In this document: piece by piece, positions 18,033 to 38,791 of the stretch
Position numbering within the stretch: position 1 is the first letter of the stretch
Layout of the letters: the number at the start of each line of letters is the position of its first letter
Assembly (NCBI GenBank): GCA_963676015.2
Contig: CAXXUQ010000003.1
Coordinates: 58,256 to 122,255, forward strand
DNA length: 64,000 nt
Direction: 5' to 3'
Origin: Prolixibacteraceae bacterium
Lineage (GTDB): Bacteria; Bacteroidota; Bacteroidia; Bacteroidales; Prolixibacteraceae
Program-made: the position numbers and the translations under genes
Notes under the pieces: generated by a model
The model's database searches: none
What the model saw: only the letters and a program-made list of their open reading frames with translations
What the model was told of the DNA's origin: nothing

Positions 18033-18544
18033 TCGAAAATACAACCTACTTTAAATGCAGGCCATCCCAAATTATGAACCTGCAAACCTTTTTGCTGACG
18101 TTGCTGTCCATTCCAATTGTGATCCTAATGCATATCATGATCAAAGAACAGCAGTTAAGCGCTATTCTTCCAGAGAAGCTGGCCGTTCACGTTGACAGGT
18201 TTCCAATCTACCTTTCAGGATATGTCCTGATAAACCTTATCTGGCAAATTCTGAAGGTTTGGTGTATCCGTTATGAAATTGACCCGGAACAACTAAGGCA
18301 CACATCAGGAATAATACTCCGAAAGCATGAGTTTGTAGAAAATTATCGGATTAAGGACTACGCCATAGAAAAGCCTTTGATCTACGGGATGTTTGGCCTG
18401 GGTAACCTGACCATTTATACCTCCGATAAGACCACACCAATCCTGTATTTATATGCCATCCGAAAGCCGGAAGAAAAGTATCAAATCCTTCGGGGACTGG
18501 TGGAACTCAGCCGGAAAGAAAAGCGTGTTTACGAAATTGATTAG
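18029..18544 (+). CDS. membrane-anchored bacterial PH-domain protein (bPH_2-like)
   Basis: Two TM segments, then RYEI...L....GI..R......YRIKD........GMFGLGNL.IYTSD.TTP.L.L..I. Confidence 0.75.
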   Translation: MIENTTYFKCRPSQIMNLQTFLLTLLSIPIVILMHIMIKEQQLSAILPEKLAVHVDRFPIYLSGYVLINLIWQILKVWCIRYEIDPEQLRHTSGIILRKHEFVENYRIKDYAIEKPLIYGMFGLGNLTIYTSDKTTPILYLYAIRKPEEKYQILRGLVELSRKEKRVYEID

Positions 18545-18621
18545 CAATTCCATTAATAGTTCTGATAATATAAACCGTAGATAACAACCATTAGTACTAA
18601 CAATTCAAAATTTTAAAAATC

Positions 18622-19584: not shown

Positions 19585-19953
19585 ATGCGACCCAAATTGT
19601 CAGAGATAGATAAACGAAATGCCAAGCTCATTATCCGGGTTTCTAGAGATGAGAAGCTCAGGTTGCAAATCCTGACCAAGAAGGGAAAATATGGCTGCAT
19701 GAGTGACCTGATCCGGACAAAGGTTTTTAATGAGTCAAACCGAAAAGTTATTTCGCTGGACGAGGAAACCAACTCACAGCTTAAAAATCTGGATTATGAA
19801 TTGAACAAGATCGGAGTCAACCTGAACCAGCTTTCCAAGCGTATGAATTCGTTTGCAGGTTACAATGTTGGGGACAATGATCGTCAATTGCTCCGTCAGG
19901 CTTTTGATATGATGAGAAATTGCCTGATACTACTTCAGAAATTTCTACACTAA
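19585..19953 (+). CDS. relaxosome accessory protein (MobA/MobC-like, RHH)
   Basis: N-terminal RHH-like region; ELNKIGVNLNQL.KR.N motif. Confidence 0.9.
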   Translation: MRPKLSEIDKRNAKLIIRVSRDEKLRLQILTKKGKYGCMSDLIRTKVFNESNRKVISLDEETNSQLKNLDYELNKIGVNLNQLSKRMNSFAGYNVGDNDRQLLRQAFDMMRNCLILLQKFLH

Positions 19954-19992
19954 TTTACCTATCTGTCCCGGCCAATCTCAAAGTACAAATCA

Positions 19993-20910
19993 ATGGTTAT
20001 TAAAATCCACCAGGCATGTAGTACGCAAAACGCTTTGTTTTACAATGAGCGGAAGGTCTTTCAGCACAAAGCTACTTTTTACCACAGTCGGAATACCCCG
20101 GAAATCAATCCTTTTCTGGGAGACAAGAATGCCAGAAATCAGATATTTAAAGAGATTGAGGACAGGAACACCCGTGTTCGAAAGAAAGGGTTGCATATTT
20201 CGGTGAACCCTACTGTTGGGGATTTGGTCAGGCTAGGAGATGCCGGGATCAGGACAGAAATTGATAACCTGATGAAACATCTGGGCTATGGGAACCAGCC
20301 TTATCTGGTATATAAACATGCCGATCTGGAACGGGTGCATTTTCATATTGTTTCGACAAGGATTGATTGTGAAACCGGCAAGAAAATCAAAGACAATTAC
20401 GAAAAGGAAAAAACACAGCGGTTCATCAAAGATTTGGAACAAAAGTATCAGTTAACGAAAGATGATAATCCGGAGAAGCTTAACTTCAGGTTCTCTAATT
20501 CGAGCAAAGACCTGAAACAAAACCTTGAAAACCTTTTTGGACAGTTGAACCGGATGGAGTTTATCACATCCAAAGAAATGTATGATCAGGCACTGGGGTT
20601 ATTTCAGGTAGAAATCCGAAGAGCAGGAAGAGGTCATCTGGTTTTTGTAGTTAATGAAAATGGAAATCCGATCCGTCATCCGGTTAAGATGTCAGACTTT
20701 CAGGATAGGCCTAAGTTTTATTTGTCTGAACAGCAGAATTTGGGTCAACATTCTAAGCAACATCTCAATCCGGATCAAACAGGACAGGGCACAGGAGTTT
20801 TAAAATCATTGATTTTGAAAGAATTGATCAGACAATTAGGAAGCAATCAACAAAAAAAAGAACAGAGATTGAGGTTGCAGAAGAAAAAAGAGAAAAAGTA
20901 CAGACCATAA
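19993..20910 (+). CDS. relaxase (MOB-P-like, short)
   Basis: ALFYNERK Tyr motif, GLHISVNP, YKHAD..RVHFHIVSTRI His-triad motif. Confidence 0.88.
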   Translation: MVIKIHQACSTQNALFYNERKVFQHKATFYHSRNTPEINPFLGDKNARNQIFKEIEDRNTRVRKKGLHISVNPTVGDLVRLGDAGIRTEIDNLMKHLGYGNQPYLVYKHADLERVHFHIVSTRIDCETGKKIKDNYEKEKTQRFIKDLEQKYQLTKDDNPEKLNFRFSNSSKDLKQNLENLFGQLNRMEFITSKEMYDQALGLFQVEIRRAGRGHLVFVVNENGNPIRHPVKMSDFQDRPKFYLSEQQNLGQHSKQHLNPDQTGQGTGVLKSLILKELIRQLGSNQQKKEQRLRLQKKKEKKYRP

Positions 20911-23270: not shown

Positions 23271-23273
23271 AAA

Positions 23274-24410
23274 ATGGATTTTGAATCAATACAAGCCTTT
23301 TTGCATAAGGCAGATATCCCCAAAATAAAACGTCAGCCTAAAACCTTCATGGGTATTGCGGGGCAACCTCATTACGAAAACGTATTATCCAATATGTATT
23401 CCTTTTATTTTGATGCCAAAGAAGAACACGGATTAGGTGATCTCTTTATTTTGACACTTATACAAATGGTGCAAGAGACAGAGGTTGGGAAGCAGAAGAA
23501 TTTTGCCTTTGCTAACGACCTCTCTAATGAAACTGAATTTCCTACAAAAAAAGGAGGTAGAATTGATTTGTTGTTAACCGACGATTTGCATAGCATAATT
23601 ATCGAAAACAAGGTCTACCATACTCTGAATAACGATCTGGAAGATTATTGGAATTCTGCAAAAGGCGCTGTTGAAAATAAAATTGGCATTGTACTCTCGT
23701 TGTTTCCCATAAACAGCACCGGACATCACCATTTTATTAACATTACACATCCTGTATTTTTGAAAAGGGTAATTGCAAACAGTGGAAATTATTTATTGGA
23801 GGCAAACGATAAATACATGGTCTTTTTAAAAGATTTAGTTCAAAATATTATCAATATGAGCACAAGCATAATGAATAAGGCTGACTTGGAATTTTATTTC
23901 GGAAATCAAAAACAAATTAATGAAATAGCCAGTTTCAAACATCGGGTGAAGACCCATATTTTAAGTGAAGTGGAAAAGGTGCCTGCTCAACTTGATGAGA
24001 AATTTGGATTGGTGCTATCTGGTAAAAGAAGTGACCGTTTGCGATATTACATTTCTTCGGTTAACAGCAATCTGATGATTACCGTGATTGTTGAAGGCTT
24101 GTTATTGTCTGAGAACAAAAAGATGCATATTGTAGTCGAGTTGGCTAAAAGCGCTTTAAAAAATAAAGAGATTTATAAAACAATCAATTTCTCGCAGGAA
24201 GAGGTAAGTGCCAATGTATTTGTTCCGGATTTTTATACCAACAACAGCAATGCTTGGGCTCACTTTGCCACAAAGGCCTACCATCCTAACGAACAGGAAA
24301 TTGCGCATTTAAGCCAATTTATTATAGACAAACTACAAAAGGATCATTTTCTTTCCATCTACCAAAAACTGAATCAACTATTTGCTAATCGAAACAGCAA
24401 CAATGTCTAA
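23274..24410 (+). CDS. PD-(D/E)XK nuclease (PDDEXK_4-like)
   Basis: HYENVLSN, GRIDLLL...IIIENKV.H.LNNDL.DY. Confidence 0.85.
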   Translation: MDFESIQAFLHKADIPKIKRQPKTFMGIAGQPHYENVLSNMYSFYFDAKEEHGLGDLFILTLIQMVQETEVGKQKNFAFANDLSNETEFPTKKGGRIDLLLTDDLHSIIIENKVYHTLNNDLEDYWNSAKGAVENKIGIVLSLFPINSTGHHHFINITHPVFLKRVIANSGNYLLEANDKYMVFLKDLVQNIINMSTSIMNKADLEFYFGNQKQINEIASFKHRVKTHILSEVEKVPAQLDEKFGLVLSGKRSDRLRYYISSVNSNLMITVIVEGLLLSENKKMHIVVELAKSALKNKEIYKTINFSQEEVSANVFVPDFYTNNSNAWAHFATKAYHPNEQEIAHLSQFIIDKLQKDHFLSIYQKLNQLFANRNSNNV

Positions 24411-25776
24411 ATACAAAACATATCCAACATATAAAGATGCCGAAATTCAATGGCTGGGAGAAATTCCGTTGCATTGGAAGGAAATTAAAACAAAGTTTCT
24501 ATTTGCAGAACGTGTTGAGAAGGGGCATCCAAATGAAACATTATTAGCTGCAACCCAGACTCAAGGGGTTATATCAAAAGATAAATATGAGACGAGAACA
24601 GTTACGGCTCAAAAAGATTTTCATTTACTAAAACTTGTAAAAAAAGGTGATTTTGTCATCAGTTTACGCTCTTTTCAAGGTGGTATTGAGATTGCTCATG
24701 AACAGGGCATTATTAGCCCTGCTTATACAATTATGGAAGGTGAAGCGACCGTTTTTAATGGGTATTTCAAACATGTTTTCAAGTCAAATAATTTCATTAG
24801 TGGTCTTACAACCTTCGTAACCGGTATTCGTGAAGGTCAGAATATTGACTATTCTAAATTTAGAATGTCATATTTACCACTTCCTCCACTCTCTGAGCAA
24901 ACTGCCATTGCCAATTTTTTGGACCGAAAAACAAGAGAAATAGATGGTTTTATTACGTTTAAAGAAAAAACCATAGCCTTGCTCAAAGAGCGCAAAACTG
25001 CTATTATTAACAAAGCTGTAACCAAAGGATTAGAAGATACCGCACCGATGAAAGATTCGGGTTACGAATGGTTAGGCAAAATTCCAGCACATTGGCTGGT
25101 GAAACGATTGCGTTATTTGGGGAAATGCCAAAATGGAGTAAGTAATGGTGCTGATTATTTTGGCTCGGGATACCCATTTGTTAATTATGGTGATGCCTAT
25201 AAGAATAGAGTTTTGCCTAATGATGTTTCGGGTTTGGCAAAAGCTACAAAAAGAGATCGGGAATTATATTCGGTAAAGCGTGGAGATGTATTTTTTACCC
25301 GTACTTCAGAAACTATTGAAGAAATAGGTTTTGCATCAACTTGTGTAAAAACAATTGATGATGCTTCCTTTTCAGGTTTTCTAATACGATTTAGACCGAT
25401 GAAGAATTGCTTAGACACTTCATTTTCAAAGTACTATTTCAGGAGTAATTTGCATCGTCCTTATTTTACCAAAGAGATGAATTTGGTTATCCGGGCATCA
25501 TTAAGTCAGGATTTATTGAAAGGTTTGCCCGTAATTCTCCCTTCTCTTTCTGAGCAAAAGTTAATTGGTGATTATTTAGATCAACAAATTGCCAAACTTG
25601 ACCTATCCATTGCACAGGCTGAAAAGGAAATTTCATTGATCAAGGAATACCAACAGAATTTAATTAGTGAAGCAGTTACCGGAAAGATTGATGTAAGAGA
25701 TGAGATTAAAGTTGATATGCCTTTGAATCTTGCAGCTGAAGGTGAAGTTGCTTATAAGGCTATAACTCAAAGGTAG
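24403..25776 (+). CDS. hsdS: type I R-M specificity subunit
   Basis: Two TRDs with repeated YKDS..WLG.IP.HW and LP.LSEQ..I..(F/Y)LD linkers. ATG 24403 overlaps the upstream stop. Confidence 0.95.
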   Translation: MSKYKTYPTYKDAEIQWLGEIPLHWKEIKTKFLFAERVEKGHPNETLLAATQTQGVISKDKYETRTVTAQKDFHLLKLVKKGDFVISLRSFQGGIEIAHEQGIISPAYTIMEGEATVFNGYFKHVFKSNNFISGLTTFVTGIREGQNIDYSKFRMSYLPLPPLSEQTAIANFLDRKTREIDGFITFKEKTIALLKERKTAIINKAVTKGLEDTAPMKDSGYEWLGKIPAHWLVKRLRYLGKCQNGVSNGADYFGSGYPFVNYGDAYKNRVLPNDVSGLAKATKRDRELYSVKRGDVFFTRTSETIEEIGFASTCVKTIDDASFSGFLIRFRPMKNCLDTSFSKYYFRSNLHRPYFTKEMNLVIRASLSQDLLKGLPVILPSLSEQKLIGDYLDQQIAKLDLSIAQAEKEISLIKEYQQNLISEAVTGKIDVRDEIKVDMPLNLAAEGEVAYKAITQR

Positions 25777-25788
25777 TGTAATGATGAT

Positions 25789-25994
25789 ATAACCTCTAAA
25801 GGTTATATTGGTACTTTATAACCTAATAAGGTTATAATTACCGATCGTTTTAGAGTTGATAATGAAAGTGCAATTTAACCTGAAAGGGGACATGAAACAA
25901 ACTTGCACAATTCAGTTCATGATAAATGTGATAAAAGAGTTGCGAATATAACTCATATAGGTTATATTGGTGCATTATAACTCATATAGGTTAT
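25789..25994. promoter_or_regulatory. four palindromic operators ATAAC(C/T)-N6-GGTTAT in two 29-bp-period pairs
   Basis: 25789-25806, 25818-25835, 25948-25965, 25977-25994. The spacers ATTGGTACTTT and ATTGGTGCATT are also alike. Confidence 0.75.
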
Positions 25995-26030
25995 ACTTTG
26001 TCCTCACATGCTACAATTAAGTTTAGAGAT

Positions 26031-26687
26031 ATGGATACAATTAAGGCTGTTCTAACAGGTGATCTGATACAATCACGAAAACTTACTAACGATGATATGG
26101 AGAAAGTGCTAAATGCACTTCACGATACATTCAGTGAGATTCAGGAGAAGATCTTGCAAAAAGAAGCTTACTTTGAAATCTATAGAGGTGATAGTTTTCA
26201 GGTACTGATTAATGAACCTCAATTGGCGCTGAAAGTCACACTCATATTAAAATCCCGTTTACTTAGTCTCTTCGGTCCGTCTAAAGTGAAACCTAATGCA
26301 CGGATAGCCATTGGTATTGGAACAATACGCATGCAAAACAGCAAAATCATTGAATCTCATGGAGAAGCATTTGAACTTTCAGGTTTTGAACTCGATAAAA
26401 TGATTAAAGAATCAACATCAATAAGTATTAAAACTCCCTGGGATGCCGTTAATGAAGAACTCAAAATAAATTGTCTGTTTGCCGACAATACAATCAACAA
26501 TTGGAGTCCAATAACCGCAGAAAGTATATTTAGATACCTGTTGTATGGTGAGACACAGGAAAAACAAGCCCAATATTTTAAAGTTTCTCAGCCTGCCATT
26601 AGTAAGAGACTATTTAATCAGGGAAATATGAAAGCCGTAGATGCTTTTCTGAAACGATTTGAATATATCATCGAAAATCACAAATAA
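26031..26687 (+). CDS. satD: SatD-family protein (class III nucleotide cyclase-like domain plus C-terminal HTH)
   Basis: VLTGDLIQSR, IYRGDSFQ, ARIAIGIG, GEAFELSG; C-terminal TQEKQAQYFKVSQPAISKRL HTH. Likely start ATG 26031. Confidence 0.85.
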   Translation: MDTIKAVLTGDLIQSRKLTNDDMEKVLNALHDTFSEIQEKILQKEAYFEIYRGDSFQVLINEPQLALKVTLILKSRLLSLFGPSKVKPNARIAIGIGTIRMQNSKIIESHGEAFELSGFELDKMIKESTSISIKTPWDAVNEELKINCLFADNTINNWSPITAESIFRYLLYGETQEKQAQYFKVSQPAISKRLFNQGNMKAVDAFLKRFEYIIENHK

Positions 26688-26695
26688 ATAAACAC

Positions 26696-27550
26696 ATGGA
26701 TTACATTCTACTTATACGTCTAATCCTGGCACATCTGATTTCCGATTTTGTCCTTCAACCTACCAAATGGGCAAAAGACAAAGACTCCAACGGATTTAGT
26801 TCTGGCTATCTCTACTTGCATATATTGGTCACAGGTATTACTGCAATGCTTTTGGTTTGGGACACGAACTATCTCTTGCCAATTGTTATTCTGACTTTCA
26901 TCCATGGACTCACCGATGGCATAAAAGGTGAATTAAATAAACGATTCCTCGAAAAATCGCCACTACTAAAACCTTCCTTCAAGAAATCATTGCTATTCAA
27001 ACATTTTCTTAAAAGAATATCACCATTATCCCTTTTTATATTCGATCAAATAATTCATGTTCTCATCTTGGGCACGATGTGGATGTTAATCACCAACGAG
27101 TCTGCAAAATTCTGGACTCAATATGGAATATTACTTCAAAGTCAGAAATTCTGGCTCTACCTATTAGGCTACATCTGGATTTCCATTCCAATTGCTGTTA
27201 TCATTGGCAAAGTAACCGACAAATGGAATAATGAACTAAATTTCCCTCAAACGTTAGAAGAAGGTACAGAAGCAACTAACATTCAAACTACAGACAAGAA
27301 AGTAAAGTCCGGACTTACGAATGCAGGCAAATGGATAGGCATCATCGAACGCATACTAATTCTAACGTTTGTACTAAATCTGCAATTTGCAGCCATTGGC
27401 TTCATGCTTACCGCTAAATCGGTATTTCGGTTTGGCGATTTAAAAGATGGTAAAGACCATAAAAAAACCGAATACATCATCATTGGAACATTCTTAAGTT
27501 TTATGCTATCCATACTAACCGGAATAGCCATCAATTACCTTACCACGTAA
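26696..27550 (+). CDS. DUF3307-family polytopic membrane protein
   Basis: LAHLISDFVLQP, YLH, HGLTD, FIFDQIIH, GKWIGIIER, AKSVFRFGDL, TEYIIIGT. Confidence 0.88.
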   Translation: MDYILLIRLILAHLISDFVLQPTKWAKDKDSNGFSSGYLYLHILVTGITAMLLVWDTNYLLPIVILTFIHGLTDGIKGELNKRFLEKSPLLKPSFKKSLLFKHFLKRISPLSLFIFDQIIHVLILGTMWMLITNESAKFWTQYGILLQSQKFWLYLLGYIWISIPIAVIIGKVTDKWNNELNFPQTLEEGTEATNIQTTDKKVKSGLTNAGKWIGIIERILILTFVLNLQFAAIGFMLTAKSVFRFGDLKDGKDHKKTEYIIIGTFLSFMLSILTGIAINYLTT

Positions 27551-27560
27551 AGCTCTACTT

Positions 27561-30500
27561 ATGCCCCAAGCCACCGACACTTCTGAAAAAGGATTTCAAA
27601 AACTCATAGTCAGTCAATTGATTGAAAAGCAAGGCTATGTTGAAAGTTTCTCTGCCGATTTTGATAAGGAATTTGCGGTAAATAAAGATCAGTTGTTTCG
27701 GTTTATTGAGCAAACACAACCCGAATATTGGGCATATATCAAACTTCGGGGCGAACGTAAATTCCTTTCTTTGTTGGATGCCAAAATTAAGAAAAAGGGC
27801 ACAGTTGAAGTGTTTCGAAAAGGGGTGGCATTCAACGATAAAACAGTTAAACTATTTTATCCGCAGCCCAATTCAAGCTATAATTTAAAAGACAGGGAAA
27901 ATTTTAGGTCCAATATTTTTTCGGTTACTCAGGAGTTAGTTTATACAACCGATCAGGCCAATCGTCTCGATTTGACCATTTTTGTAAATGGCTTGCCCAT
28001 TTGTACGATGGAATTAAAAAACGCATTTACTTATCAGGCGGTAAAAAATGCCATTCATCAATACATGTTCGACCGTAAATCGAAAGATAAACTGTTAAAC
28101 CAAGGCAGGTGTATGGTACATTTTGCAATGGACACCACTCTAGTTTACATGACTGGCGCACTCAATAACAATGAGACTACTTTTTTCCCTTTTAATAAAG
28201 GCTTAAACGATGGCAGCGCCCACCCACCATTTGGTGCCGGGAATCCGGTGAATCCCGATGGCATTAAAACAGCCTACATGTGGGAAAAAATCCTGACGAA
28301 AGGAAGTTTGGCAAACATTATTGAAAAATTTGCAACATTCTTTCCTAAAAAGAACATGCAGATTTTTCCAAGATACCACCAGTTAAAAGTGGTTCGCAAC
28401 CTGTTAGCTGATGCCAAAGAAAAAGGAGTTGGTCAACGTTACCTGATTCAACATTCCGCCGGTTCAGGTAAATCAAACTCCATCACTTGGTTAGCGCATC
28501 AACTGATTGGCCTTTACAATGCCGACACAGTAACTCCTCTATTCGACAGCGTATTAGTAGTAACCGACCGCACCAATCTCGACGAACAAATACGTGAAAA
28601 CATCAAAGACTTTGCTCAGGTAAAAAGGGTAGTCGAAGCCATTACCGGAAAGGCAAAAGACATTAAAGCCATCGACCCTGCAGAACAGGTATTCAGCAAA
28701 ACGGTTCACATGCGTTTGGCATTGGCCAATAACAAGAAGATTATTACCTGCACAGTACAAACCTTTCCTTTTGTGCTGAAAGTAATTCAGGATATGGCTG
28801 CGAAAAAGGTTGCCATTATCATTGACGAAGCACACTCCAGCCAAAGTGGCCTTGCGGCAGCCAGTATGAATGCTGTATTTGCTAATGAAAAATTTCAGGA
28901 CCTTCCCACCGATGAAGAGGGAAATATAAATACGGAAGATCTGGTCAATTATCTGGTAGAGAGCCGTAAAATGTTAAAAAATGCCAGCTATTTTGCCTTT
29001 ACAGCAACGCCAAAAAATAAAACATTGGAAACGTTTGGTATAAAAGTACCCTACATCAATGAACATGGAGAAGAGCATTTTCAATCTTACCCATTTCATA
29101 CCTATTCCATGAAGCAGGCCATTGAAGAGGAGTTTATTTTGGATGTATTGAAGAACTACACCACTTACAAGTCTTTCTTCAAGATCAAAGAAAGCGAGAA
29201 AGCTTCCGGGGAAGAGGAATACGATACCAAAAAGGCAAATAAAAAGATTCGTTCATTTGTGGAAGGGCATGAACTGGCAATAAGCGATAAAGCCCGAACC
29301 ATGATTGATCATTTCAACAAACATGTTTATTTTCTGATCGATCACAAAGCCAAAGCAATGGTCGTTTGTAAGTCGATTGAAGCTGCCATGAAATATAAAG
29401 ATGCGTTTGACCACTACCTGAAAGAATTGAATAGCCCGTATAAATCGATTGTTGCTTTTTCGGGCAAAAAGAAACATTATAAAACTGGAGAAGAGCTAAC
29501 TGAAGAAAAAATGAACGCTTTTTCCGATGGCATCAACGACATACCAAAACAATTTAAAAAACTCGAATACCGTTTCTTAATTGTAGCTGATAAATACCAG
29601 ACAGGTTTCGATCAACCATTGTTACATACCATGTATGTCGACAAAGAGTTGTCTGATGTACAGGCAGTTCAAACACTTTCGCGCTTAAACAGGGCATACA
29701 AGCCTGCGAAGAAAGACACTTTTGTACTCGATTTCTTTAACATTACTGAAGACATCAAAGAAGCATTTAAACCATATTACACCACAACAATTCTAAGTCA
29801 GGAAACAGATGCAAATAAATTAAACGCACTTCAGGAAGATCTTGATGAATTTCAGATTTATGATGAAGACCAACTGCTGCAATTCTTCAAACTATACCAC
29901 AATAGCAATGAAAAGAACGACAACAGGCCGAAACTTGACCGCATTATTGATGTGATACAGGCCTGTTTCGCCGAGGATTTAATTAAGGATCAGCAAATTG
30001 ACTTTAAAAGCAAAGCGAAATCTTTTGTAAGGACTTATAGCTATTTGGCAAAACTGCTCGATTTCAATAAAACCTATTGGGAAATGCTGTGGTTAGTGCT
30101 TAAACATCTCATTCCGCACCTTAAAATTGCTGAAGATGCGCCAGATGAGAACATTCTGGAAGTAATTGATATGGCAAGTTACAGTAACCGGAGTCAGGAG
30201 AAAAATATAGAAATTGAATTGGTAAACGAGCCAGGAATAGTTGAACCTATTCCTGTAGGTGGTGGTGGTGGAAGTTCGGCACCTGAGTATGATAAATTGA
30301 AAAACATTGTAAAACAGTTTAATGAACGATTTGCCAAAGATTTGGAAGAGTTTGGTGAGAATCAAGCTGAAGCAACAGAAATTCTATCAGTGGGTATTCC
30401 ACAAAAACTAAAAGAAAATGAGGCCACTTTAAAAACAATTGCCAATTCAGATAAGGCCAATGCCAAAGATGAAGCAGATTTCCAGTTAAAGGCACTCATG

Positions 30501-30641
30501 CAAAAGCTGATGTTTACCAATACCGGTCTGTACAAAAAATTTCTTGGTGATGAAGATTTTCGCAACCGATACGAGGAATTTATTTTCGATATGCTTTGGC
30601 AGGAGGTGAAGGGGGTGCCCAATCAAATAAAAGCGCGTTAA
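27561..30641 (+). CDS. hsdR: type I R-M restriction subunit
   Basis: RLDLTIFVNGLPICTMELKN nuclease motif, QHSAGSGKS, IIDEAHSSQ, FTATPK, KYQTGFDQP, VQTLSRLNR. Confidence 0.96.
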   Translation: MPQATDTSEKGFQKLIVSQLIEKQGYVESFSADFDKEFAVNKDQLFRFIEQTQPEYWAYIKLRGERKFLSLLDAKIKKKGTVEVFRKGVAFNDKTVKLFYPQPNSSYNLKDRENFRSNIFSVTQELVYTTDQANRLDLTIFVNGLPICTMELKNAFTYQAVKNAIHQYMFDRKSKDKLLNQGRCMVHFAMDTTLVYMTGALNNNETTFFPFNKGLNDGSAHPPFGAGNPVNPDGIKTAYMWEKILTKGSLANIIEKFATFFPKKNMQIFPRYHQLKVVRNLLADAKEKGVGQRYLIQHSAGSGKSNSITWLAHQLIGLYNADTVTPLFDSVLVVTDRTNLDEQIRENIKDFAQVKRVVEAITGKAKDIKAIDPAEQVFSKTVHMRLALANNKKIITCTVQTFPFVLKVIQDMAAKKVAIIIDEAHSSQSGLAAASMNAVFANEKFQDLPTDEEGNINTEDLVNYLVESRKMLKNASYFAFTATPKNKTLETFGIKVPYINEHGEEHFQSYPFHTYSMKQAIEEEFILDVLKNYTTYKSFFKIKESEKASGEEEYDTKKANKKIRSFVEGHELAISDKARTMIDHFNKHVYFLIDHKAKAMVVCKSIEAAMKYKDAFDHYLKELNSPYKSIVAFSGKKKHYKTGEELTEEKMNAFSDGINDIPKQFKKLEYRFLIVADKYQTGFDQPLLHTMYVDKELSDVQAVQTLSRLNRAYKPAKKDTFVLDFFNITEDIKEAFKPYYTTTILSQETDANKLNALQEDLDEFQIYDEDQLLQFFKLYHNSNEKNDNRPKLDRIIDVIQACFAEDLIKDQQIDFKSKAKSFVRTYSYLAKLLDFNKTYWEMLWLVLKHLIPHLKIAEDAPDENILEVIDMASYSNRSQEKNIEIELVNEPGIVEPIPVGGGGGSSAPEYDKLKNIVKQFNERFAKDLEEFGENQAEATEILSVGIPQKLKENEATLKTIANSDKANAKDEADFQLKALMQKLMFTNTGLYKKFLGDEDFRNRYEEFIFDMLWQEVKGVPNQIKAR

Positions 30642-30658
30642 AAACCAAACTATAATCC

Positions 30659-31657
30659 ATGCAAACAGCCCTCTATCTCAATAACAAGCGGTTCACCGAA
30701 AAAGAATTTTCCAAGGAAAAAGAGTTGGAAGATCTGATGTTTCAGAATAGCAAAAATCTATTCGGTCAACATAGCATCATTATCGAAGCAAAAAAGAAGA
30801 TCGACCATAAAACATTAGGTGGTACTATTCCTGATGCTTTTCTGTTCGATCTCAACGACCCGGAGAATCCGGAGTTTTACCTCATTGAGGTAGAGTTGGC
30901 TAGCCATAGTTTTTTCAACCACATTTTTCCACAGATCACCAAATTCTTTGCTTTTTTCAAAAATTCGGTCAGCCAGAGCGAATTAATTGAGAAACTTTAT
31001 TCCCTGATCAATGCTGATGCAGGATTAAAGAAACAGTTTAAAGATCGTATCGGAAATAAGGAAATATTCAAATTCATTAAGGACACTATTGAGAACAGTC
31101 AAAACATTTTGTTGATGCTCGACAATGAGAAACCCGAGCTGCCTGAGATCATTAATACCTATACCGACACATGGGGTAAAATTGTTAAGCTTACTTTGCT
31201 AAAAGAATACACTCATAACGGCGAAAGCATCATCAGCCTGACTCCCGAATTTGCCAATATTGTTACAGTGGGACTCGCAACAGAGAAGGAAGCTCCCGGT
31301 TCATATACTGAAGAATATCATTTGGAAGGTACTTCCCCGGAAATAAAAGAAGCATACCGCACAATGCATGATGCACTAACCTTTCAGACAAAAGACATTA
31401 TTTTTAACCCGTTGCGCTACTATATTTCGTTGCGTAAAAAGAAGAACTTCGCCTTCATTCATGTCAAAAAATCAAAAATGACCATTGTTGCCATGATGGA
31501 TCAGCCTTCAATTGAAGAACGGATCAAACACCATAAAATCAATACCCTTGCCGCAAGTGTCCAGAAATTCTATAACGGTCCATGTGCTCAAATAGTAATC
31601 ACTGACAATTCAAATATGAACGAAATAATCAATCTACTAGTGGAAATACAAAAATAA
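30659..31657 (+). CDS. PD-(D/E)XK (NucS/EndoMS-like) nuclease fused to a DUF5655-like C-terminal domain
   Basis: EKELEDL, IPDAFL, LIEVEL in the N-terminal part; YTEEYHL...YISLRKKKNFAFIH.KK in the C-terminal part. Confidence 0.7.
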   Translation: MQTALYLNNKRFTEKEFSKEKELEDLMFQNSKNLFGQHSIIIEAKKKIDHKTLGGTIPDAFLFDLNDPENPEFYLIEVELASHSFFNHIFPQITKFFAFFKNSVSQSELIEKLYSLINADAGLKKQFKDRIGNKEIFKFIKDTIENSQNILLMLDNEKPELPEIINTYTDTWGKIVKLTLLKEYTHNGESIISLTPEFANIVTVGLATEKEAPGSYTEEYHLEGTSPEIKEAYRTMHDALTFQTKDIIFNPLRYYISLRKKKNFAFIHVKKSKMTIVAMMDQPSIEERIKHHKINTLAASVQKFYNGPCAQIVITDNSNMNEIINLLVEIQK

Positions 31658-31794
31658 TCTGATTTAATGGATTTTTTGAGGTGTAGCAACGTTCGTTCAA
31701 TTGAGGCAAAAGCAAAATTGTGGAGAAAGAGTGTGAATGAAAATGTTTTTAGTGAGGATAGGTTAAAGTCAAAATATTGTCTAAACATATTTGA

Positions 31795-33186
31795 ATGAGA
31801 GATACATTGTTTATTAGCCATGCAACTCCTGAAGATAATGAGTTTGCTATCTGGATTGGGTCAAGGCTGGAGATGTTGGGATATAAAGTTTGGATAGATA
31901 AAGATCGATTGCTTGGTGGTGAACCTTTTTGGAGAACAATTGACGGTGTGATTAGAAACGATGCAGTAAAAGTATTGTTAATCTATTCAAATAACATCTG
32001 TCTTTCACCAGGCATTCTTAAGGATGGCATAGATAAAGAATTTTCTCTTGCTGAAGCTATTGCGAAAAGTGAAGGTCTATCTGATTTTATAATACCTCTG
32101 AATATTGATAAAGATGTACCTTATAATTCCTTTATTGGTTCAAATAGACTTAATCAAATACCATTCTTTGGCAATTGGGCAGAAGGACTAAAACAGCTAT
32201 TGAAGAAATTGATTAATGACAACGTTCCCAAGCTAAAAGAGATACAAGAATCAACTTTTTCTGAATGGTATGAGAACGAATATATTTCAAACTGCTCAAT
32301 TATTTCGAAAAAAGAATTGTATTACTCTTCCTGGTGGCAAATTGCAGAAATGCCACCAAGGTTTTACATGTTTAAATTTACGAATGCTGAGCAAGCAAAA
32401 GCAGTTCGAAACGCTAATACATTGCCTGTTAGTCTTTTGTCTAACACTATATCAGCGTTTGATGAAAATATCAATTTTACTGTAACAAGAGAAGATGAAG
32501 AAATTGAGGTACTACCCGAAGCTACATATTCATTTTCTTTAACTGATATTCTTGACGGGTTTCTGTCAGAATCTTTTCCACAGCATAAGGATGCTGAAAA
32601 TCATTTCAAATGGTTATTGAGAGGTGTAATAACTAATTTGTTCAGGAATAAAGGACTGTGGAAACAAGAGATGTCAAATAAAAAATTTGTTTATTTTTTG
32701 CCAAGTTATAATGATTTAAAACCAGTTAGTTTTAAATATCCATTCTCTAGCCCAAATAAAAAGGATAAAAGAAAATCAATCGTTGGAAAATTCGAGGATA
32801 TCGGAAAGTGGCATTACGCTGTTTCGTGTCAAACTAGTTTGTCCCCAATTGTCGGGTTTTCATTAAAATCTCATTTGGTTTTTACCAGTGACGGTTTCAA
32901 ATTACTGCAAGATGAGAAAAAGGTTCATGGATATAGAAGGAAAAAGGGAAGACGATTCTTTAATGATGAATGGAGAGATCTGCAACTGGCATTTATTCAA
33001 AGATTAAAGGATAATGATAATGAAATAAAAATAAAGGTTTCAAATGAAGGATGGTATTTGAAAATGGAAAACTGGACTGAGATGTTTTGGAGCGATGTAG
33101 GTTATCGAGATCCTAGCACACCTATGGCTGTTGAAAAAATTGAAGATTTCTTTGAAGAACCTCATAACGAAGAAAATGATGATTGA
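31795..33186 (+). CDS. TIR-APAZ effector of a SPARTA system
   Basis: LFISHATPEDNEF.IW....L...GYKVW.D TIR start, catalytic Glu in DKEFSLA, FIIPL.ID; APAZ half with ELYYSSWW, WHYAVS, KSH.VFTSDG, RRKKGR.FFNDEWRD. Confidence 0.93.
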   Translation: MRDTLFISHATPEDNEFAIWIGSRLEMLGYKVWIDKDRLLGGEPFWRTIDGVIRNDAVKVLLIYSNNICLSPGILKDGIDKEFSLAEAIAKSEGLSDFIIPLNIDKDVPYNSFIGSNRLNQIPFFGNWAEGLKQLLKKLINDNVPKLKEIQESTFSEWYENEYISNCSIISKKELYYSSWWQIAEMPPRFYMFKFTNAEQAKAVRNANTLPVSLLSNTISAFDENINFTVTREDEEIEVLPEATYSFSLTDILDGFLSESFPQHKDAENHFKWLLRGVITNLFRNKGLWKQEMSNKKFVYFLPSYNDLKPVSFKYPFSSPNKKDKRKSIVGKFEDIGKWHYAVSCQTSLSPIVGFSLKSHLVFTSDGFKLLQDEKKVHGYRRKKGRRFFNDEWRDLQLAFIQRLKDNDNEIKIKVSNEGWYLKMENWTEMFWSDVGYRDPSTPMAVEKIEDFFEEPHNEENDD

Positions 33187-34693
33187 CCCTGAATTAAAAT
33201 ACCTTAGCGAACCTTTTCTAACTTTCAATAATGGGCAAAAGGCAATAGATCCGCGAGATGGATTAATGTTATTTGGTCCATTTTCACAAAAAAAAGTTAA
33301 AGGACAAAAGACTATTGGTCTTATTGGACCTGCGATTTTGCGAAATAGAATGTTAGAGTATTTAAAAAAGCTGCATGCACCGATTTTAAATTCCGATAGA
33401 TCTATTGCCCGACCTAGCTTCCCTGGACTTGAAACAATCTTTGATATTTATGTAAATTTCGAAAATGTTTCACAAATCGAAATTTCTCAAAATGAGATTG
33501 ATAAATATTTGAAATTTAGGGATTCACATCAGCGAGTTCACAATTGGACCAATTTATATGTTGACAAATTGAAAGAATATGCAGATAATGAGGAAATACC
33601 TGTTGACGTTTGGATAATTGTTATCCCAGAATGCATTTTCCAGTATGGAAGGCCAAATTCGAAGATACCAAAATCAGCCGATGTTATAAATGAAGGATTA
33701 AGTATTGCTAAAAGGAATTCACCTCAATTAGATATGTTTTTTCAGGACGAAATTGATCAATTGAAAAAAGCGTATGAATTTGAGATCAACTTTCACAATC
33801 AATTAAAAGCAAAGGTTTTATCAGATAAAATTATTACCCAAATTATTAGGGAAAGCAAAATCTCATATGAAGAGTTGTGGGATAATCCTGAAAAGATTGA
33901 TGCTGAACGTAAATTCGACAGTGCTAAAGCATGGAATATATCTACGGCCTTGTATTATAAGCTTGGTGGTTTACCATGGAAACTTGGAGATGTAAGAGAG
34001 AATGTATGTTATTTAGGTCTTGTTTATAAAAAGACTGATGCGAATGAGAAAAATAAAAATGCTTGTTGTGCTGCTCAAATGTTTTTAGATTCTGGGGATG
34101 GTATGGTATTTCGCGGGAATGTTGGTCCTTGGTGGAATCCAAAAACTGGTGAATTTCATTTATCAAAAAAGGATGCCACTGATATAATATCTCAATCTTT
34201 AGAGTCTTTTTACAATAACTCCGGACATTATCCAAAGGAGGTATTTATTCATGCAAAAACTTATTTTGATGACACAGAATGGGAAGGATTTGAGGAGGCT
34301 GCAAAGGGGAAATGTAAAATAATAGGTGTAAGGATTAGGGAAAATAATACATTCAAATTATACCGACAACAGCAATACTGTATTCCAAGAGGTATGATGT
34401 TGCATTTTGATGATAATAAGGCATATTTATGGACAAAAGGATTTATTCCGCGTTTTCAGACTCAAATTGGATTGGAAACCCCAAATCCGCTAGAAGTAGC
34501 CATAACACGCGGTAAATCAGAAGTTGAGATTGTTTGTAAGGATATTCTGGGATTAACGAAGTTGAATTATAATACTTGTATTTATGGTGATGGTGTTCCC
34601 GTAACATTAAAGTTTGCTGAAGCCGTAGGGGAAATTCTAACGTCAGGTAAAGATGTAAAAGGTGGAGTTTTGCCATTTAAACATTATATATAA
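33176..34693 (+). CDS. short prokaryotic Argonaute (MID-PIWI, catalytically inactive) of SPARTA
   Basis: EP.L.F..GQK..DPRDGL.LFGP, FHNQLKAK, AWNISTALYYKLGG.PWKL, CYLGLVYKK, ACCAAQMFLD.GDG, LTKLNYN.CIY.DG.PVTLKFA. Start overlaps the TIR-APAZ stop. Confidence 0.95.
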   Translation: MMIDPELKYLSEPFLTFNNGQKAIDPRDGLMLFGPFSQKKVKGQKTIGLIGPAILRNRMLEYLKKLHAPILNSDRSIARPSFPGLETIFDIYVNFENVSQIEISQNEIDKYLKFRDSHQRVHNWTNLYVDKLKEYADNEEIPVDVWIIVIPECIFQYGRPNSKIPKSADVINEGLSIAKRNSPQLDMFFQDEIDQLKKAYEFEINFHNQLKAKVLSDKIITQIIRESKISYEELWDNPEKIDAERKFDSAKAWNISTALYYKLGGLPWKLGDVRENVCYLGLVYKKTDANEKNKNACCAAQMFLDSGDGMVFRGNVGPWWNPKTGEFHLSKKDATDIISQSLESFYNNSGHYPKEVFIHAKTYFDDTEWEGFEEAAKGKCKIIGVRIRENNTFKLYRQQQYCIPRGMMLHFDDNKAYLWTKGFIPRFQTQIGLETPNPLEVAITRGKSEVEIVCKDILGLTKLNYNTCIYGDGVPVTLKFAEAVGEILTSGKDVKGGVLPFKHYI

Positions 34694-34786
34694 CACATAA
34701 TACTACTCACAGAGATGAATTAAGTTTGATCTCTATTTACAATACGTCATTTGTTTTGTATTTAACTCTGTATTAAAAAACACCTT

Positions 34787-35035
34787 CTATTCATGTTTTC
34801 GGCAAGAAATTATGTATAGATATGATTCATCAATCGAATAAACTAATCGGTTTTGAATATCAATACTAATAGAAAATATACCGGTAGTCTTTCGTACTGA
34901 ACCGTTCGAAAAGAAATAATTCAATATAATCTCAATAATAGAATTAATTTTTCTCTTCCTTCTCTTGTCCATTTTTCCCCAAAGCATATAGTCATCCCAA
35001 GCTTCTGCTGAAAAGATAATATTCTTCTTTCTCAT
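34787..35035 (-). pseudogene. yoeB: degenerate YoeB/Txe toxin
   Basis: IFSAEAWDDYM.W...DKR...KIN..I and RLVY retained. The central GKPEPLK segment is missing; SRRI has become SISI and the C-terminal RYHY has become RKHE. Confidence 0.65.
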
Positions 35036-35043
35036 TTTTTTAC

Positions 35044-35304
35044 TTAATCCTTTAAGTCATTTAGAGATACTTTTTTGATTAAACTTTCCTTGATTTGCTC
35101 TAAGCTTCTTGCCAGATGTAAAGCATTATTTGTATTACTTATTAGGTGAAAAGTTTCCATAATCGTTTCATAATCATCTCTAGACATTATTATTACATCT
35201 TCGCCACGGGTTCTTTTTACAAGTATTTGGGAGTGGTCATCTGTAACCTGATCCAAATAAGACTTTAACTGACTTCGAAAATCAGAAAATGTTACTGATT
35301 TCAT
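35044..35304 (-). CDS. yefM: YefM/Phd antitoxin
   Basis: VTFSDFRSQLKSYLDQVTDDH..ILVKR..GEDVIIMS.DDYE...ET.HL. TGTAC operator-like cores upstream at about 35320-35380. Confidence 0.9.
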   Translation of the reverse strand: MKSVTFSDFRSQLKSYLDQVTDDHSQILVKRTRGEDVIIMSRDDYETIMETFHLISNTNNALHLARSLEQIKESLIKKVSLNDLKD

Positions 35305-35443
35305 ATTTACATATATAATTGTACGTAAAAGTATAAAATTAAGATAATTTAGTATATAAGTTGTACTTATAGATGTACATTTTATTTTGTGGTCAAATTT
35401 GTCCTTTTGAATTTCACATCAATATTTCACTTTTAAAAGAAAA

Positions 35444-35647
35444 ATGGCTAATTCTTTTAATAATGTGAAACGATCAATTCTTCTATTCTTAGGAGGTATT
35501 GAATTTTTTAGAGTTTTTCAAAGAGACGTTTTAGAATTTATAATTATCCTTTGTGCGATGATGCTCCTTATTTTGTTTGTTTTCTATTTGCTGACCTCAA
35601 AGCGATTCCTCAAAGCATACAGAAAAATCATGAAGGGGAGAAAATAG
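35444..35647 (+). CDS. small membrane protein
   Basis: 67 aa with a hydrophobic core and basic tail. Confidence 0.4.
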   Translation: MANSFNNVKRSILLFLGGIEFFRVFQRDVLEFIIILCAMMLLILFVFYLLTSKRFLKAYRKIMKGRK

Positions 35648-35747
35648 TCAAGAATTCTATTTGATTTTTTTCATGTAAAATTCAAATGTAGATTCTATAG
35701 TTATTCTCTGGTATTGTTACACTCAAATTTCCGACAAAGTTATTGAT

Positions 35748-35979
35748 CGCTTCACGGAACGGTAAAGGGGAACTCGCTTTTCGTGGCTCGTTTCCTTCGG
35801 ATGCGTTCAGTTTCATGGATTGCCCATTTCGGGCATGAAACTGACATGCACCCCGTTGACCTGATCCGTGACAGCTCAATGTTGGTACGCCAAAAATTTA
35901 AGTTTAGCGGCGTGCCAGATATTTCCCTAGTTAAATCGAAGGGAGCCATAATAAGTCCGCAGGGCAGCGGCACTTTCAC
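35748..35979 (+). repeat. structured leader, copy 1 (upstream of ardC)
   Basis: 135-bp core (35748-35882) differs from 37738-37872 at 5 positions. Two further hairpins are conserved in structure. Confidence 0.85.
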
Positions 35980-36894
35980 ATGAATACTTCATTCGACATT
36001 TATGAAATGGTTACAAACCTGATTATTGAACGCCTTGAAGCGGGTGTTGTCCCTTGGCAGATGCCCTGGAAAGCTGAAACCGGGTTCCCACAAAACATGG
36101 TTCACAAAAAAGCTTACCGTGGTTTTAATTTCTGGTTGCTGCTGACTGTTACAGATAAGTTTGGCTCTCCGTTCTTTCTAACCTTCAACCAGATCAAAGA
36201 ATTGGGTGGGCATGTTTTGAAAGGCGAAAAAGGTTTCCCGGTTGTGTTCTGGAAGCTGTTGGATAAGGAAGAAAAAGATGGAAGCCTTGACCATATCCCT
36301 TTCCTCCGTTATTACACCGTTTTTAACTTGAAACAAACCGAAGGTATCGATGAAAGCAAGATCCCAGCAACTGAAGCACACGACCATGTATTTGACCCGA
36401 TTGGTCAGGCAGAACAGTTAATCGAATTCTGGTATGATAGCCCTGAAATCAGGCTTGACCAGTCACACGCCTTTTATTCGCCTTCCGGTGATTACGTCGG
36501 GATGCCAAACCCACGGACTTTTTTCAGGGACGAACAATATTATTCGACACTTTACCACGAACTGGTTCATTCTACCGGGCATATCAATCGAACTGGAAGG
36601 CATGAAAAGCTTTCGGATCACAAATTCGGTTCTCAGGATTACAGCCAAGAAGAACTCGTAGCTGAATTAGGAGCCGCGTACTTGTGTTACATGACTGGTA
36701 TTCAAAATGCCACAATTGACAACAGCACTGCGTACATCAAAAGCTGGATTGGTAAATTCAAGGAAGATAAAAAGATGTTGTTGATTGCTTCTTCTCAGGC
36801 ACAAAAGGCAGTTGATTATATATTGGAACATCAGGTTCATCCCAACCAGGCGGCAAGTGCCGCTTTGGTTGACCAAATGGCGGAGGCAGTTTAG
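35980..36894 (+). CDS. ardC: ArdC-family ssDNA-binding anti-restriction protein (DUF1738 plus zincin-like domain)
   Basis: G.VPWQMPW, YRGFN, FLTFNQIKELGG.V.KGEKG, FLRYYTVFN..QTEG, YYSTLYHELVHSTGH..R, YS.EELVAELGAA.LC. Confidence 0.93.
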   Translation: MNTSFDIYEMVTNLIIERLEAGVVPWQMPWKAETGFPQNMVHKKAYRGFNFWLLLTVTDKFGSPFFLTFNQIKELGGHVLKGEKGFPVVFWKLLDKEEKDGSLDHIPFLRYYTVFNLKQTEGIDESKIPATEAHDHVFDPIGQAEQLIEFWYDSPEIRLDQSHAFYSPSGDYVGMPNPRTFFRDEQYYSTLYHELVHSTGHINRTGRHEKLSDHKFGSQDYSQEELVAELGAAYLCYMTGIQNATIDNSTAYIKSWIGKFKEDKKMLLIASSQAQKAVDYILEHQVHPNQAASAALVDQMAEAV

Positions 36895-36908
36895 CCTTCG
36901 CCTTTTTT
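36879..36908 (+). terminator. intrinsic terminator after ardC
   Basis: GGCGGAGGC-loop-GCCTTCGCC followed by T6. Confidence 0.75.
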
Positions 36909-36950
36909 AGCTCAAAATTTCACAGTTAGAAACAATTAAAGATTAAAGAT

Positions 36951-37658
36951 ATGGAACAGTCAAAAAGTTTTACCCAGTATATACTGCAAATCGGTTACAA
37001 GTATGGTTTGCATTCGGTATTTGATGATTTTCTTGAAATGGTTGTTTGCGCTTTATCTTTAGGGGCAAAGGAAGACCGTTACTTGGAGATTGTCCGTAAT
37101 TACGAAAAACCGGATGCCTACCTGATGGCTGAAGCTTTTGGCGCATTAGTTGTTGAAATGGACAACAATGGCGAAGGTTTGAAAGATGGGTTCGGTGACT
37201 TTTATATGGAATACCTTAGTCATGGACATAATGGACAGTTCTTTACCCCGGAACCGATTTGTGAAATGATGGCCAGGATTCTAAATCCGGCAGGTTTTGG
37301 AGAACGGGTTGCAGATTGTTGCTGTGGCTCTGGCCGGATGTTGCTGGCAGCAGCAAAAACAAGTCGAAACTCGTTATTCTTTGGGGCTGATATTGACCGA
37401 ACCTGTGCCATGATGTGTTTGATCAACCTATGCCTGAATGGACTTTTGGGCGAAGTCTGTTGGATGGATACGTTGATGAACCGTTTTTATGCAGGGTGGC
37501 GGGTTGAACTTCACCCCGAGAAGGGAGTTCCGTATATCAGGGAAATTACCGAACCTGAAAGTTACATGGTTCTAAGGCTACCTGAAAAGAAACAGGAACT
37601 CATTGTCCAACAAGCACCAGTAACTAAAGTAACTCAGCAGCTGATGTTTGAATTCTAG
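36951..37658 (+). CDS. N6-methylase-like (HsdM-like) protein lacking the NPPY catalytic motif
   Basis: GQFFTPEPIC, DCCCGSGRML (SAM-binding motif I), GADID..CA.MC..NL. No (N/D/S)PP(Y/F) anywhere in the ORF. Confidence 0.8.
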   Translation: MEQSKSFTQYILQIGYKYGLHSVFDDFLEMVVCALSLGAKEDRYLEIVRNYEKPDAYLMAEAFGALVVEMDNNGEGLKDGFGDFYMEYLSHGHNGQFFTPEPICEMMARILNPAGFGERVADCCCGSGRMLLAAAKTSRNSLFFGADIDRTCAMMCLINLCLNGLLGEVCWMDTLMNRFYAGWRVELHPEKGVPYIREITEPESYMVLRLPEKKQELIVQQAPVTKVTQQLMFEF

Positions 37659-37676
37659 GGGCAATGCCCCTTTTTT
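37657..37676 (+). terminator. intrinsic terminator
   Basis: AGGGGCA-A-TGCCCCT followed by a T-tract. Confidence 0.65.
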
Positions 37677-37737
37677 GTTCGTTCAATTTTTTGTTAGGTA
37701 AAATCACTCCATTTAAAATTGCAGGCAAAATTATTTA

Positions 37738-37942
37738 CGCTTCACGGAACGGTAAAGGGGAACTCGCCTTTCGTGGCTCGTTTCCTTCGGATGCGTTCAG
37801 TTTCATGGATTGCCCATTCCGGGCATAAAACTGACATGCACCCCGTTGACCTAATCCGTGATAGCTCAATGTCCGGTTACGCCGAAATTTTAACCGGCGT
37901 GCCAGATGCCAATATAAATCTGTAAGGCAGCAGTAAATAACT
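37738..37942 (+). repeat. structured leader, copy 2
   Basis: Near-identical to 35748-35882, with covarying downstream hairpins. Confidence 0.85.
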
Positions 37943-38302
37943 ATGAATAATGCAGCTAAGAAACTCGATGCTGAAAGTGTAGAACAACCTAAAACTTCTT
38001 TGGAAGTTGTAAAGAAAGATGAAAAAGAAGTTGCTGAAGTTCCTTCATTGGAGAAACGCATCCAGAAAGTGGAAGACCTAAGCATGCTCATCGAGAAGTG
38101 GCGCAAGCTCACCGAAACCAGAAGAAATCTCCAAACCTTCTCCCTGGGTGCTGACGGGTTGGGAGCAACAGTGTTCCTTCGGGACGCATCAGGAAAAGAG
38201 TTTAAAACTTCCAACACCCCTGTGGTATCCGCAGTGATGGAAGAAATCAAAACGACTTTGGATGAGAGGATCAAAGAAGTTGAAACCCAGATCAAATTTT
38301 GA
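37943..38302 (+). CDS. small acidic/helical hypothetical ICE protein
   Basis: 119 aa with coding-like composition; has its own structured leader and terminator. Confidence 0.7.
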   Translation: MNNAAKKLDAESVEQPKTSLEVVKKDEKEVAEVPSLEKRIQKVEDLSMLIEKWRKLTETRRNLQTFSLGADGLGATVFLRDASGKEFKTSNTPVVSAVMEEIKTTLDERIKEVETQIKF

Positions 38303-38307
38303 AAATA

Positions 38308-38332
38308 GGGAGGCAAAAGCCTCCCATTTTTT
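38308..38332 (+). terminator. intrinsic terminator
   Basis: GGGAGGC-AAAA-GCCTCCC-ATTTTTT. Confidence 0.8.
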
Positions 38333-38441
38333 GTCGCTTATAATTATATTCTATAGATACCTATGACTGTGATTGTATTTTATAATTTTTCATTTATTTT
38401 TCTTGAAAAGATTGCATGATTGAAATAATAAGCTTTACTTT

Positions 38442-38459
38442 GTTCGTCATTTCACGAAC
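38442..38459. promoter_or_regulatory. putative ArsR operator GTTCGT-N6-ACGAAC
   Basis: Palindrome just upstream of arsR, repeated at 40173-40190. Confidence 0.7.
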
Positions 38460-38467
38460 TACGAACA

Positions 38468-38791
38468 ATGCAAAAAGAAATAATTACAGAAGAACAGCAA
38501 AAGGCAGCCCGTTATGCCAAGGCGATGGGACATCCCATCCGTATGTATGTGCTTGACTTACTTTCAAAACAGTCATGTTGTTACAGTGGGGATTTAACCG
38601 AGGATCTTCCAATCGTCAAATCAACCCTTTCCCAACATCTGAAAGAACTGAAAGATGCTGGCTTAATTCAGGGTGAAATTGAAGCCCCACGAGTTAAATA
38701 TTGTCTGAATAAAGAAAACTGGAAGGAAGCACAAGATTTATTCCGCAAATTTCTGAAAATGGATATTGAAGAACAAATTCAAAAATATTAA
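38468..38791 (+). CDS. arsR: ArsR/SmtB repressor 1
   Basis: AKAMGHPIR..., SCCYSGDL, KSTLSQHLKELKDAGLI.G. Confidence 0.92.
   Translation: MQKEIITEEQQKAARYAKAMGHPIRMYVLDLLSKQSCCYSGDLTEDLPIVKSTLSQHLKELKDAGLIQGEIEAPRVKYCLNKENWKEAQDLFRKFLKMDIEEQIQKY

Follow-up and report, generated by a model that had tools for sequence, protein, structure and literature searches.

A probably functional SPARTA cassette in the cargo interval of a CTnDOT-type integrative and conjugative element from a Prolixibacteraceae bacterium

The closest described systems to the locus considered here are MapSPARTA, CrtSPARTA and BabSPARTA of clade S2A (PDB 8fex, 8ifk and 8qlo; Koopal 2022), in which a short prokaryotic Argonaute (pAgo) is paired with a TIR-APAZ protein, and which share an operon order with the TIR-APAZ gene first and an overlapping pAgo gene behind it. 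SPARSA (SIR2-APAZ) and SPARDA (DREN-APAZ) also couple a short pAgo sensor to an APAZ-fused effector in abortive infection, the effector being SIR2 in SPARSA and a nuclease in SPARDA as against the TIR NADase predicted here. Short pAgo systems on integrative and conjugative elements (ICEs) of Bacteroidota, where they form modular cargo beside Type I restriction-modification (R-M) genes, are already published for Elizabethkingia anophelis, and the position of the short pAgo differs between related ICEs of that species (BMC Microbiol 2026, PMC13019914). We analyzed a stretch of 64,000 nucleotides from a Prolixibacteraceae bacterium (GenBank assembly GCA_963676015.2, contig CAXXUQ010000003.1, positions 58,256 to 122,255 of the forward strand), hereafter the window, to whose first letter all coordinates without a contig name refer. 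With considerable confidence we interpret its central locus as a functional, canonical SPARTA of clade S2A which makes up a two-gene cargo cassette of a CTnDOT-type Bacteroidota ICE and occupies the variable interval separating relaxase from ardC. The cassette consists of the following features:

31771-31794 (24 nt), + strand: conserved leader and left border of the cassette, at which homology to the related loci L001 and L003/L004 starts
31795-33186, + strand: TIR-APAZ gene, 463 aa, identified by Pfam, PADLOC and solved-structure matches; TIR domain at about residues 1-140, acidic C-terminal tail at about residues 440-463
33179-34693, + strand: short pAgo gene with MID and PIWI domains only, 504 aa, identified by PADLOC, the SPARTA pAgo chains and its conserved start

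The initial annotation had called a complete SPARTA from these two co-oriented open reading frames (ORFs), and the call is borne out by full-length matches of both products to the chains of the solved complexes, with which they share the domain layout. The catalytic Glu, W46, Y105, the His/Lys pocket of the MID domain, the C-terminal Ile and the acidic C-terminal tail of the Map, Crt and Bab systems all have counterparts here. The TIR-APAZ protein matches Pfam TIR_2 (E 3e-16), the PADLOC model Aga_TIR-PNTD1-PNTD2 (E 1e-146) and the corresponding chains of 8fex, 8qlo, 8sp0 and 8ifk (E 6e-49 to 2e-46), its residues 1-445 aligning with residues 1-424 of the MapSPARTA chain 8fex_A (E 6e-49). In this alignment W46, E82, Y110, R118 and N120 correspond to Map W46, E77, Y105, R114 and N116, residues whose roles, like those of the pAgo residues below, are taken from Koopal 2022 (PMC9097488) and Kottur 2024 (PMC11156904). 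The catalytic Glu is thus retained, as had been noticed at the outset: it is E82 (nt 32038-32040), the counterpart of E77 in both Map and Crt, and together with W46 it is invariant in an alignment of 27 clade sequences.

The peptide ICLSPGILKDG (residues 68-78, nt 31996-32028), which had been singled out as a short insertion ahead of the catalytic Glu, does lie in the loop that precedes the helix carrying this residue, but it is not peculiar to this copy. Five of its residues are extra relative to Map, and an insertion of varying length, longer in some clade members, is present in all 26 aligned relatives, making it a trait of the clade. An AlphaFold model of the protein (mean pLDDT 82.5) predicts that it folds into a small beta-hairpin connecting strand C with helix C. 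The protein as a whole is about 10 residues longer than the Map, Crt and Bab proteins. The APAZ region follows the TIR domain and is in turn followed by the acidic tail, which has 9 Asp/Glu among the last 15 residues and is conserved in the clade; in SPARTA this tail is autoinhibitory (PMC10899771).

The short pAgo is best matched by the PADLOC model pAgo_I (E 4e-200), whereas the SIR2-APAZ model of the same collection matches only the shared PIWI part (E 3e-36). It aligns end to end with the 507-aa SPARTA pAgo chains 8ifk_B (E 4e-140) and 8fex_B (E 4e-137), in agreement with its earlier description as a short pAgo, and it conserves the counterparts of His207 and Lys211 in the 5'-phosphate pocket, of Asn439, Asn466 and Asn468, and of the C-terminal Ile (alignment; PMC11156904); the equivalent of Arg481 is a Lys. 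From its family membership and from its motifs, which read GLVY and IHAKT in place of the GxDV and RDG of catalytic Argonautes, the protein also appears to be devoid of the DEDX slicer tetrad, as the initial annotation had it; this tetrad is absent from all short pAgos (Koopal 2022, PMC9097488). That the pAgo gene overlaps the TIR-APAZ gene also proved correct, the overlap being 8 nt, but the start originally assumed, TTG 33131, lies too far upstream. The ATG at 33179 sits in ATGATTGA, which overlaps the TIR-APAZ stop codon and is kept, as such or as a one-base variant, in 7 of 8 related loci, one close relative having no other ATG there; because of this conservation we take ATG 33179 as the start and TTG 33131 as an artefact of the ORF finder. 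Both genes are under purifying selection, with dN/dS values of 0.10 for TIR-APAZ and 0.07 for the pAgo in comparison with L001, and the same two values in comparison with L003.

A relative named Culturomica sp. at NCBI (L008:10001-11375 and L009, protein P0062; gut-associated) has an in-frame TGA in its TIR-APAZ gene, which replaces the conserved Trp of EMFWSEVGY and removes the acidic autoinhibitory tail, the last ~30 residues; the frame 3' of the TGA and the ATGATTGA overlap are unbroken. As 55 blocks of the collection list this allele (24 of their contigs were read), SPARTA without the tail seems to be a widespread natural variant.

The borders of the cassette are defined by L001, a contig of a Prolixibacteraceae metagenome-assembled genome (MAG), which matches 31771-34693 at 95.5% nt identity and nothing else of the window. 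The homology runs from 24 nt 5' of the TIR-APAZ ATG to exactly the pAgo stop codon, with unrelated flanks on both sides. In L001 the SPARTA pair is flanked by hsdS on one side and hsdR on the other, both belonging to a different Type I R-M operon, and the R-M proteins around it are only 23-39% identical to those of the window; therefore it is the cassette that moves and not the R-M operon. The same hsdS-SPARTA-X-hsdR layout recurs in a contig from ENA and in L003/L004 (86-88% aa identity in TIR-APAZ), so that in all these closest relatives of the TIR-APAZ protein (86-96% aa identity) the pair sits within a Type I R-M operon, after hsdS and before hsdR. Clade members at a greater distance (59-62% aa identity) are found beside MmeI-type enzymes, Gabija-like or Abi genes, integrases and plain ICE genes, with no Type I R-M system nearby; one of them, L011, is located on another conjugative transposon directly after its coupling protein gene. 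Judged by these borders, the SPARTA cassette, comprising the two genes and the 24-nt leader, is a discrete mobile unit. Our search for related loci in genome contigs gave one locus, and the wider set of contexts comes from contigs encoding relatives. SPARTA is rare and patchy among the sampled Bacteroidota genomes, being present in only 3 of 400 other species genomes, where all copies are distant ones of Map/Crt-like type; near-identical copies of the cassette come from metagenomes of groundwater, soil and sludge.

On its gene content and order the carrier is a CTnDOT-type Bacteroidota ICE of about 59 kb (41-59009), with tra genes, a coupling protein, a MobA/MobB relaxase module, RteC and a tyrosine integrase recognized by Pfam and NCBIfam annotation. 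The left part encodes, in order, RteC, traE/F, traG (VirB4), traJ, traK, traM, traN, a YWFCY-type coupling protein and a DUF3945/DUF4099 protein; the middle part the mobA-like protein and MobB relaxase, a Type I R-M operon, a DUF5655 gene, SPARTA, YoeB/YefM, ardC and a truncated methylase-like gene; and the right part an 18-kb arsenic/metal resistance block and the integrase, after which chromosomal genes for an extracytoplasmic function (ECF) sigma factor, FecR and SusC follow. The principal features outside the cassette are:

41-51: candidate left att core TTTTTATAATA; homology to a sister ICE starts at exactly this base
7177-18032, + strand: conjugation genes traE/F, traG (VirB4), traJ, traK, traM, traN and coupling protein (YWFCY/TraG-D)
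19585-20910, + strand: mobA-like accessory gene and relaxase (MobB type), bounding the variable cargo interval on its left
21069-30641, + strand: Type I R-M operon (hsdM, PD-(D/E)XK, hsdS, an ORF without Pfam match, DUF3307, hsdR), the rest of the defence island
30659-31657, + strand: DUF5655-domain gene (Pfam), upstream neighbour of SPARTA
34787-35304, - strand: YoeB/YefM-type toxin-antitoxin pair, convergent with the pAgo gene
35980-36894, + strand: ardC (ArdcN and zincin metallopeptidase domains by Pfam), part of the ICE backbone by its sister-ICE homologue
57259-58485, + strand: tyrosine integrase, right end of the ICE
58999-59009: candidate right att core, the identical 11-mer, 514 nt downstream of the integrase, with the chromosomal ECF-sigma/FecR/SusC genes following closely

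A short-word search for att repeats was ambiguous at first and the homology border with the sister ICE decided the matter. As the 11-nt repeat occurs at both ends, with its left copy at that border, the ICE would span about 59 kb and hold SPARTA well inside; a tRNA scan for the integration site found none. The initial proposal that SPARTA rides on a conjugative element is accordingly sound, with tra genes, relaxase, integrase and the repeats enclosing the cassette, and such carriage is not unusual in view of the published Elizabethkingia ICEs and the repeated occurrence in L011. Compared by description, those ICEs differ from the present one in host lineage (the nearest copy here is the Prolixibacteraceae MAG) and in ICE subtype. 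At 33% GC, SPARTA also stands apart in composition from the tra backbone (about 43%) and from the genome as a whole (41%).

The sister ICE, of the same family and in the same genome (contig C5, 2420577 to about 2511565), clarifies the architecture of the carrier. Between RteC and the relaxase its backbone has 88-92% nt identity to that of the window, with most tra proteins 87-99% identical, and the 11-mer TTTTTATAATA recurs at C5:2511565. Homology to the window stops at 20829 and resumes in the ardC region, which is shared at 83-88% nt identity and encodes an ArdC homologue with 87% aa identity. In the sister ICE, 64 kb of unrelated genes fill the space between relaxase and ardC that is taken up in the window by a 15-kb defence island; SPARTA is absent from the sister ICE, and the genome encodes a single pAgo. 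As the sister ICE keeps ardC and carries different cargo, we regard the interval from relaxase to ardC as variable cargo space and ardC as backbone. No ArdC homologue was found in 21 kb around the 95.5% identical cassette of L001, and none of 9 other SPARTA loci probed with the ArdC protein of the window has one within about 10 kb. ardC and SPARTA are inherited independently, and on this pattern of co-occurrence in the sister ICE, L001 and the 9 other loci we reject ArdC as a partner of SPARTA.

Several further observations concern the surroundings of the cassette and the mobility of its neighbours. In L001, positions 17225-18687 encode homologues (59% and 52% aa identity) of the methylase-like gene (36951-37658) and of a 119-aa gene (37943-38302) of the window; they sit 3' of the Type I R-M operon of L001, and ArdC is absent. 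Since L001 has both genes and no ArdC, the two appear to travel without ardC on Bacteroidota elements. L003, for its part, has a homologue of the mobA-like gene a short distance upstream, and with these genes in view we regard L001 and L003 as mobile elements, too, in which the island occupies an equivalent position. In a contig from the groundwater run X3, similarity of about 98% to the window extends over 30658-35743 (DUF5655 gene, SPARTA, YoeB/YefM and the beginning of the ardC leader) and is lost beyond, on the left exactly where the DUF5655 gene starts, which suggests a larger module that likewise moves between contexts. The DUF5655 gene was considered as an obligate third component and rejected: it is linked to SPARTA in the window, X3 and X5, and absent from L001, L003 and all other contexts. 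Run X2, whose label names a different organism (B), contains pieces identical to 27000-35117 (hsdR, SPARTA and toxin-antitoxin) at a very low depth of about 2, which could represent the same ICE in another host or cross-contamination. The summed contig depth of the ardC region (35448-38500), with many variants, exceeds that of SPARTA 5- to 100-fold in all 4 runs, and ardC-type backbones are on this measure far commoner than the SPARTA cassette in these communities. Elsewhere in the genome, the integrase region of the window (56975-58470) has a 93% nt copy at C5:729725-731219 and the FtsX/ABC transporter pair (49737-51583) an 88% nt copy at C5:1627798-1629644; the genome probably contains further related elements or exchanged modules.

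Taken together, the intact genes, the conserved functional residues and the selection acting on both suggest that this copy of SPARTA is probably active. By analogy with the characterized homologues, from which NADase activity, RNA guides, activation threshold and benefit to the ICE are all extrapolated, the TIR-APAZ protein and the pAgo would form a heterodimer, and the pAgo would take up 5'-phosphorylated small RNAs from the transcriptome. On the complementary single-stranded DNA (ssDNA) of a multicopy, transcribed invader many such complexes would tetramerise, their TIR domains would hydrolyse NAD(P)+, and the invaded cell would arrest its growth or die. Carried on an ICE, the system would guard the unit of host plus ICE against competing plasmids.

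A number of observations count against this interpretation. The TIR-APAZ protein shares only 31-33% identity with the three copies of Map/Crt length in other Bacteroidota genomes; its match to the Map, Crt and Bab chains (170 bits) is far weaker than that of the pAgo (471 bits), and by alignment it belongs to an uncharacterized subclade with the loop insertion lying beside the catalytic helix. In the pAgo, the base-contacting Tyr148 of the solved homologue is replaced by Phe. In the 137-nt gap upstream of SPARTA we found no promoter of the Bacteroidota type: matches to the consensus TTTG-N17-23-TANNTTTG numbered 4, where 4.8 were expected, and none of them was close to SPARTA; scans for sigma-70 promoters and terminators remained at chance level. 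With no promoter recognized in the gap and a cassette leader of only 24 nt, expression must come from the host context. A search of sequencing runs found none on record as RNA that holds SPARTA. In one wastewater run labelled RNA-Seq, a label that is a guess and may stand for DNA, parts of the operon are matched at 97-99% identity by pieces of contigs, including one spanning 31642-32188; we do not count it as evidence.

The lack of a recognizable promoter bears on two alternatives. The cassette could be silent or decaying cargo with no current function, as the scans upstream of it, which recognized no promoter, might be taken to imply; this is scarcely credible given the intact frames, the conservation of all functional residues checked, the dN/dS values of 0.07-0.10 and the preservation of the translationally coupled overlap. 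Alternatively, SPARTA could be functionally coupled to the Type I R-M system as a co-transcribed or layered unit, and not be an independent passenger in a cargo hotspot. In addition to the cassette bringing no promoter of its own, this would accommodate the position of the window's SPARTA directly behind hsdR and the DUF5655 gene, and the embedding of its closest relatives in Type I R-M operons in three other settings (L001, the ENA contig and L003/L004). We nevertheless deem such coupling unlikely, as the clade members at 59-62% aa identity stand next to other defence genes, integrases or plain ICE genes away from any Type I R-M system, the R-M flanks of the window and L001 are strongly divergent, and Map and Crt SPARTA function alone in E. 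coli (PMC9097488).

The remaining alternatives turn on the ssDNA that an ICE produces in transfer. The initial annotation had reasoned that a carrier making ssDNA itself needs self-avoidance, possibly via coating by ArdC or via timing; in this scenario SPARTA would recognize the transfer ssDNA with ICE-derived guides, and the ICE would depend on such a countermeasure to spare the donor or the new host. Guide RNA with ssDNA does activate SPARTA in vitro (PMC9097488), ardC is located only about 1.3 kb 3' of the pAgo gene, and 58 of the 61 non-nested ORFs (>=100 aa) within the ICE are on the + strand, which would make every ICE mRNA fragment complementary to the transferred strand (T-strand). However, this complementarity hinges on the minus strand being the one transferred; SPARTA protein is absent from a naive recipient at the moment of ssDNA entry; and ardC is conserved in the sister ICE that has no SPARTA, while being missing around the L001 cassette and from the vicinity of the 9 other loci. 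Moreover, SPARTA loads genome-targeting guides, yet the single-copy genome does not activate it, and neither does a highly transcribed gene on a single-copy bacterial artificial chromosome, activation requiring multicopy, transcribed DNA (PMC9097488). A dependence on ArdC or timing is therefore highly improbable, and the sequence offers no support for a special mechanism of self-protection; the initial annotation, considered as a whole, is partly supported. It is also conceivable that SPARTA serves as a device for exclusion between elements, with guides from the abundant, uniformly plus-strand transcripts of the resident ICE recognizing the incoming T-strand of a related ICE or plasmid, so that the conjugative entry of kin elements would set off NAD depletion. 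In that event the ICE itself would have to transfer rarely or with tight timing. We consider it very unlikely, as the sister ICE, with a backbone 88-92% identical at the nucleotide level, co-resides in the genome.

We accordingly favor a canonical SPARTA that acts on multicopy invaders and is carried as modular cargo. If the single-copy ICE stays below the activation threshold as single-copy targets do in the characterized systems, no dedicated self-avoidance factor would be needed, and the copy-number threshold already published for SPARTA would in principle resolve the puzzle of self-targeting. The locus adds a well-delimited and probably active member of an uncharacterized subclade, which is distinguished by a TIR-APAZ protein of about 460 aa with a loop insertion by the catalytic helix and has 439 metagenomic relatives at E <= 1e-20. 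The two genes with their 24-nt leader, shuttling between Type I R-M islands of Bacteroidota elements, should likewise be useful for catalogues of defence islands and of ICE cargo slots.

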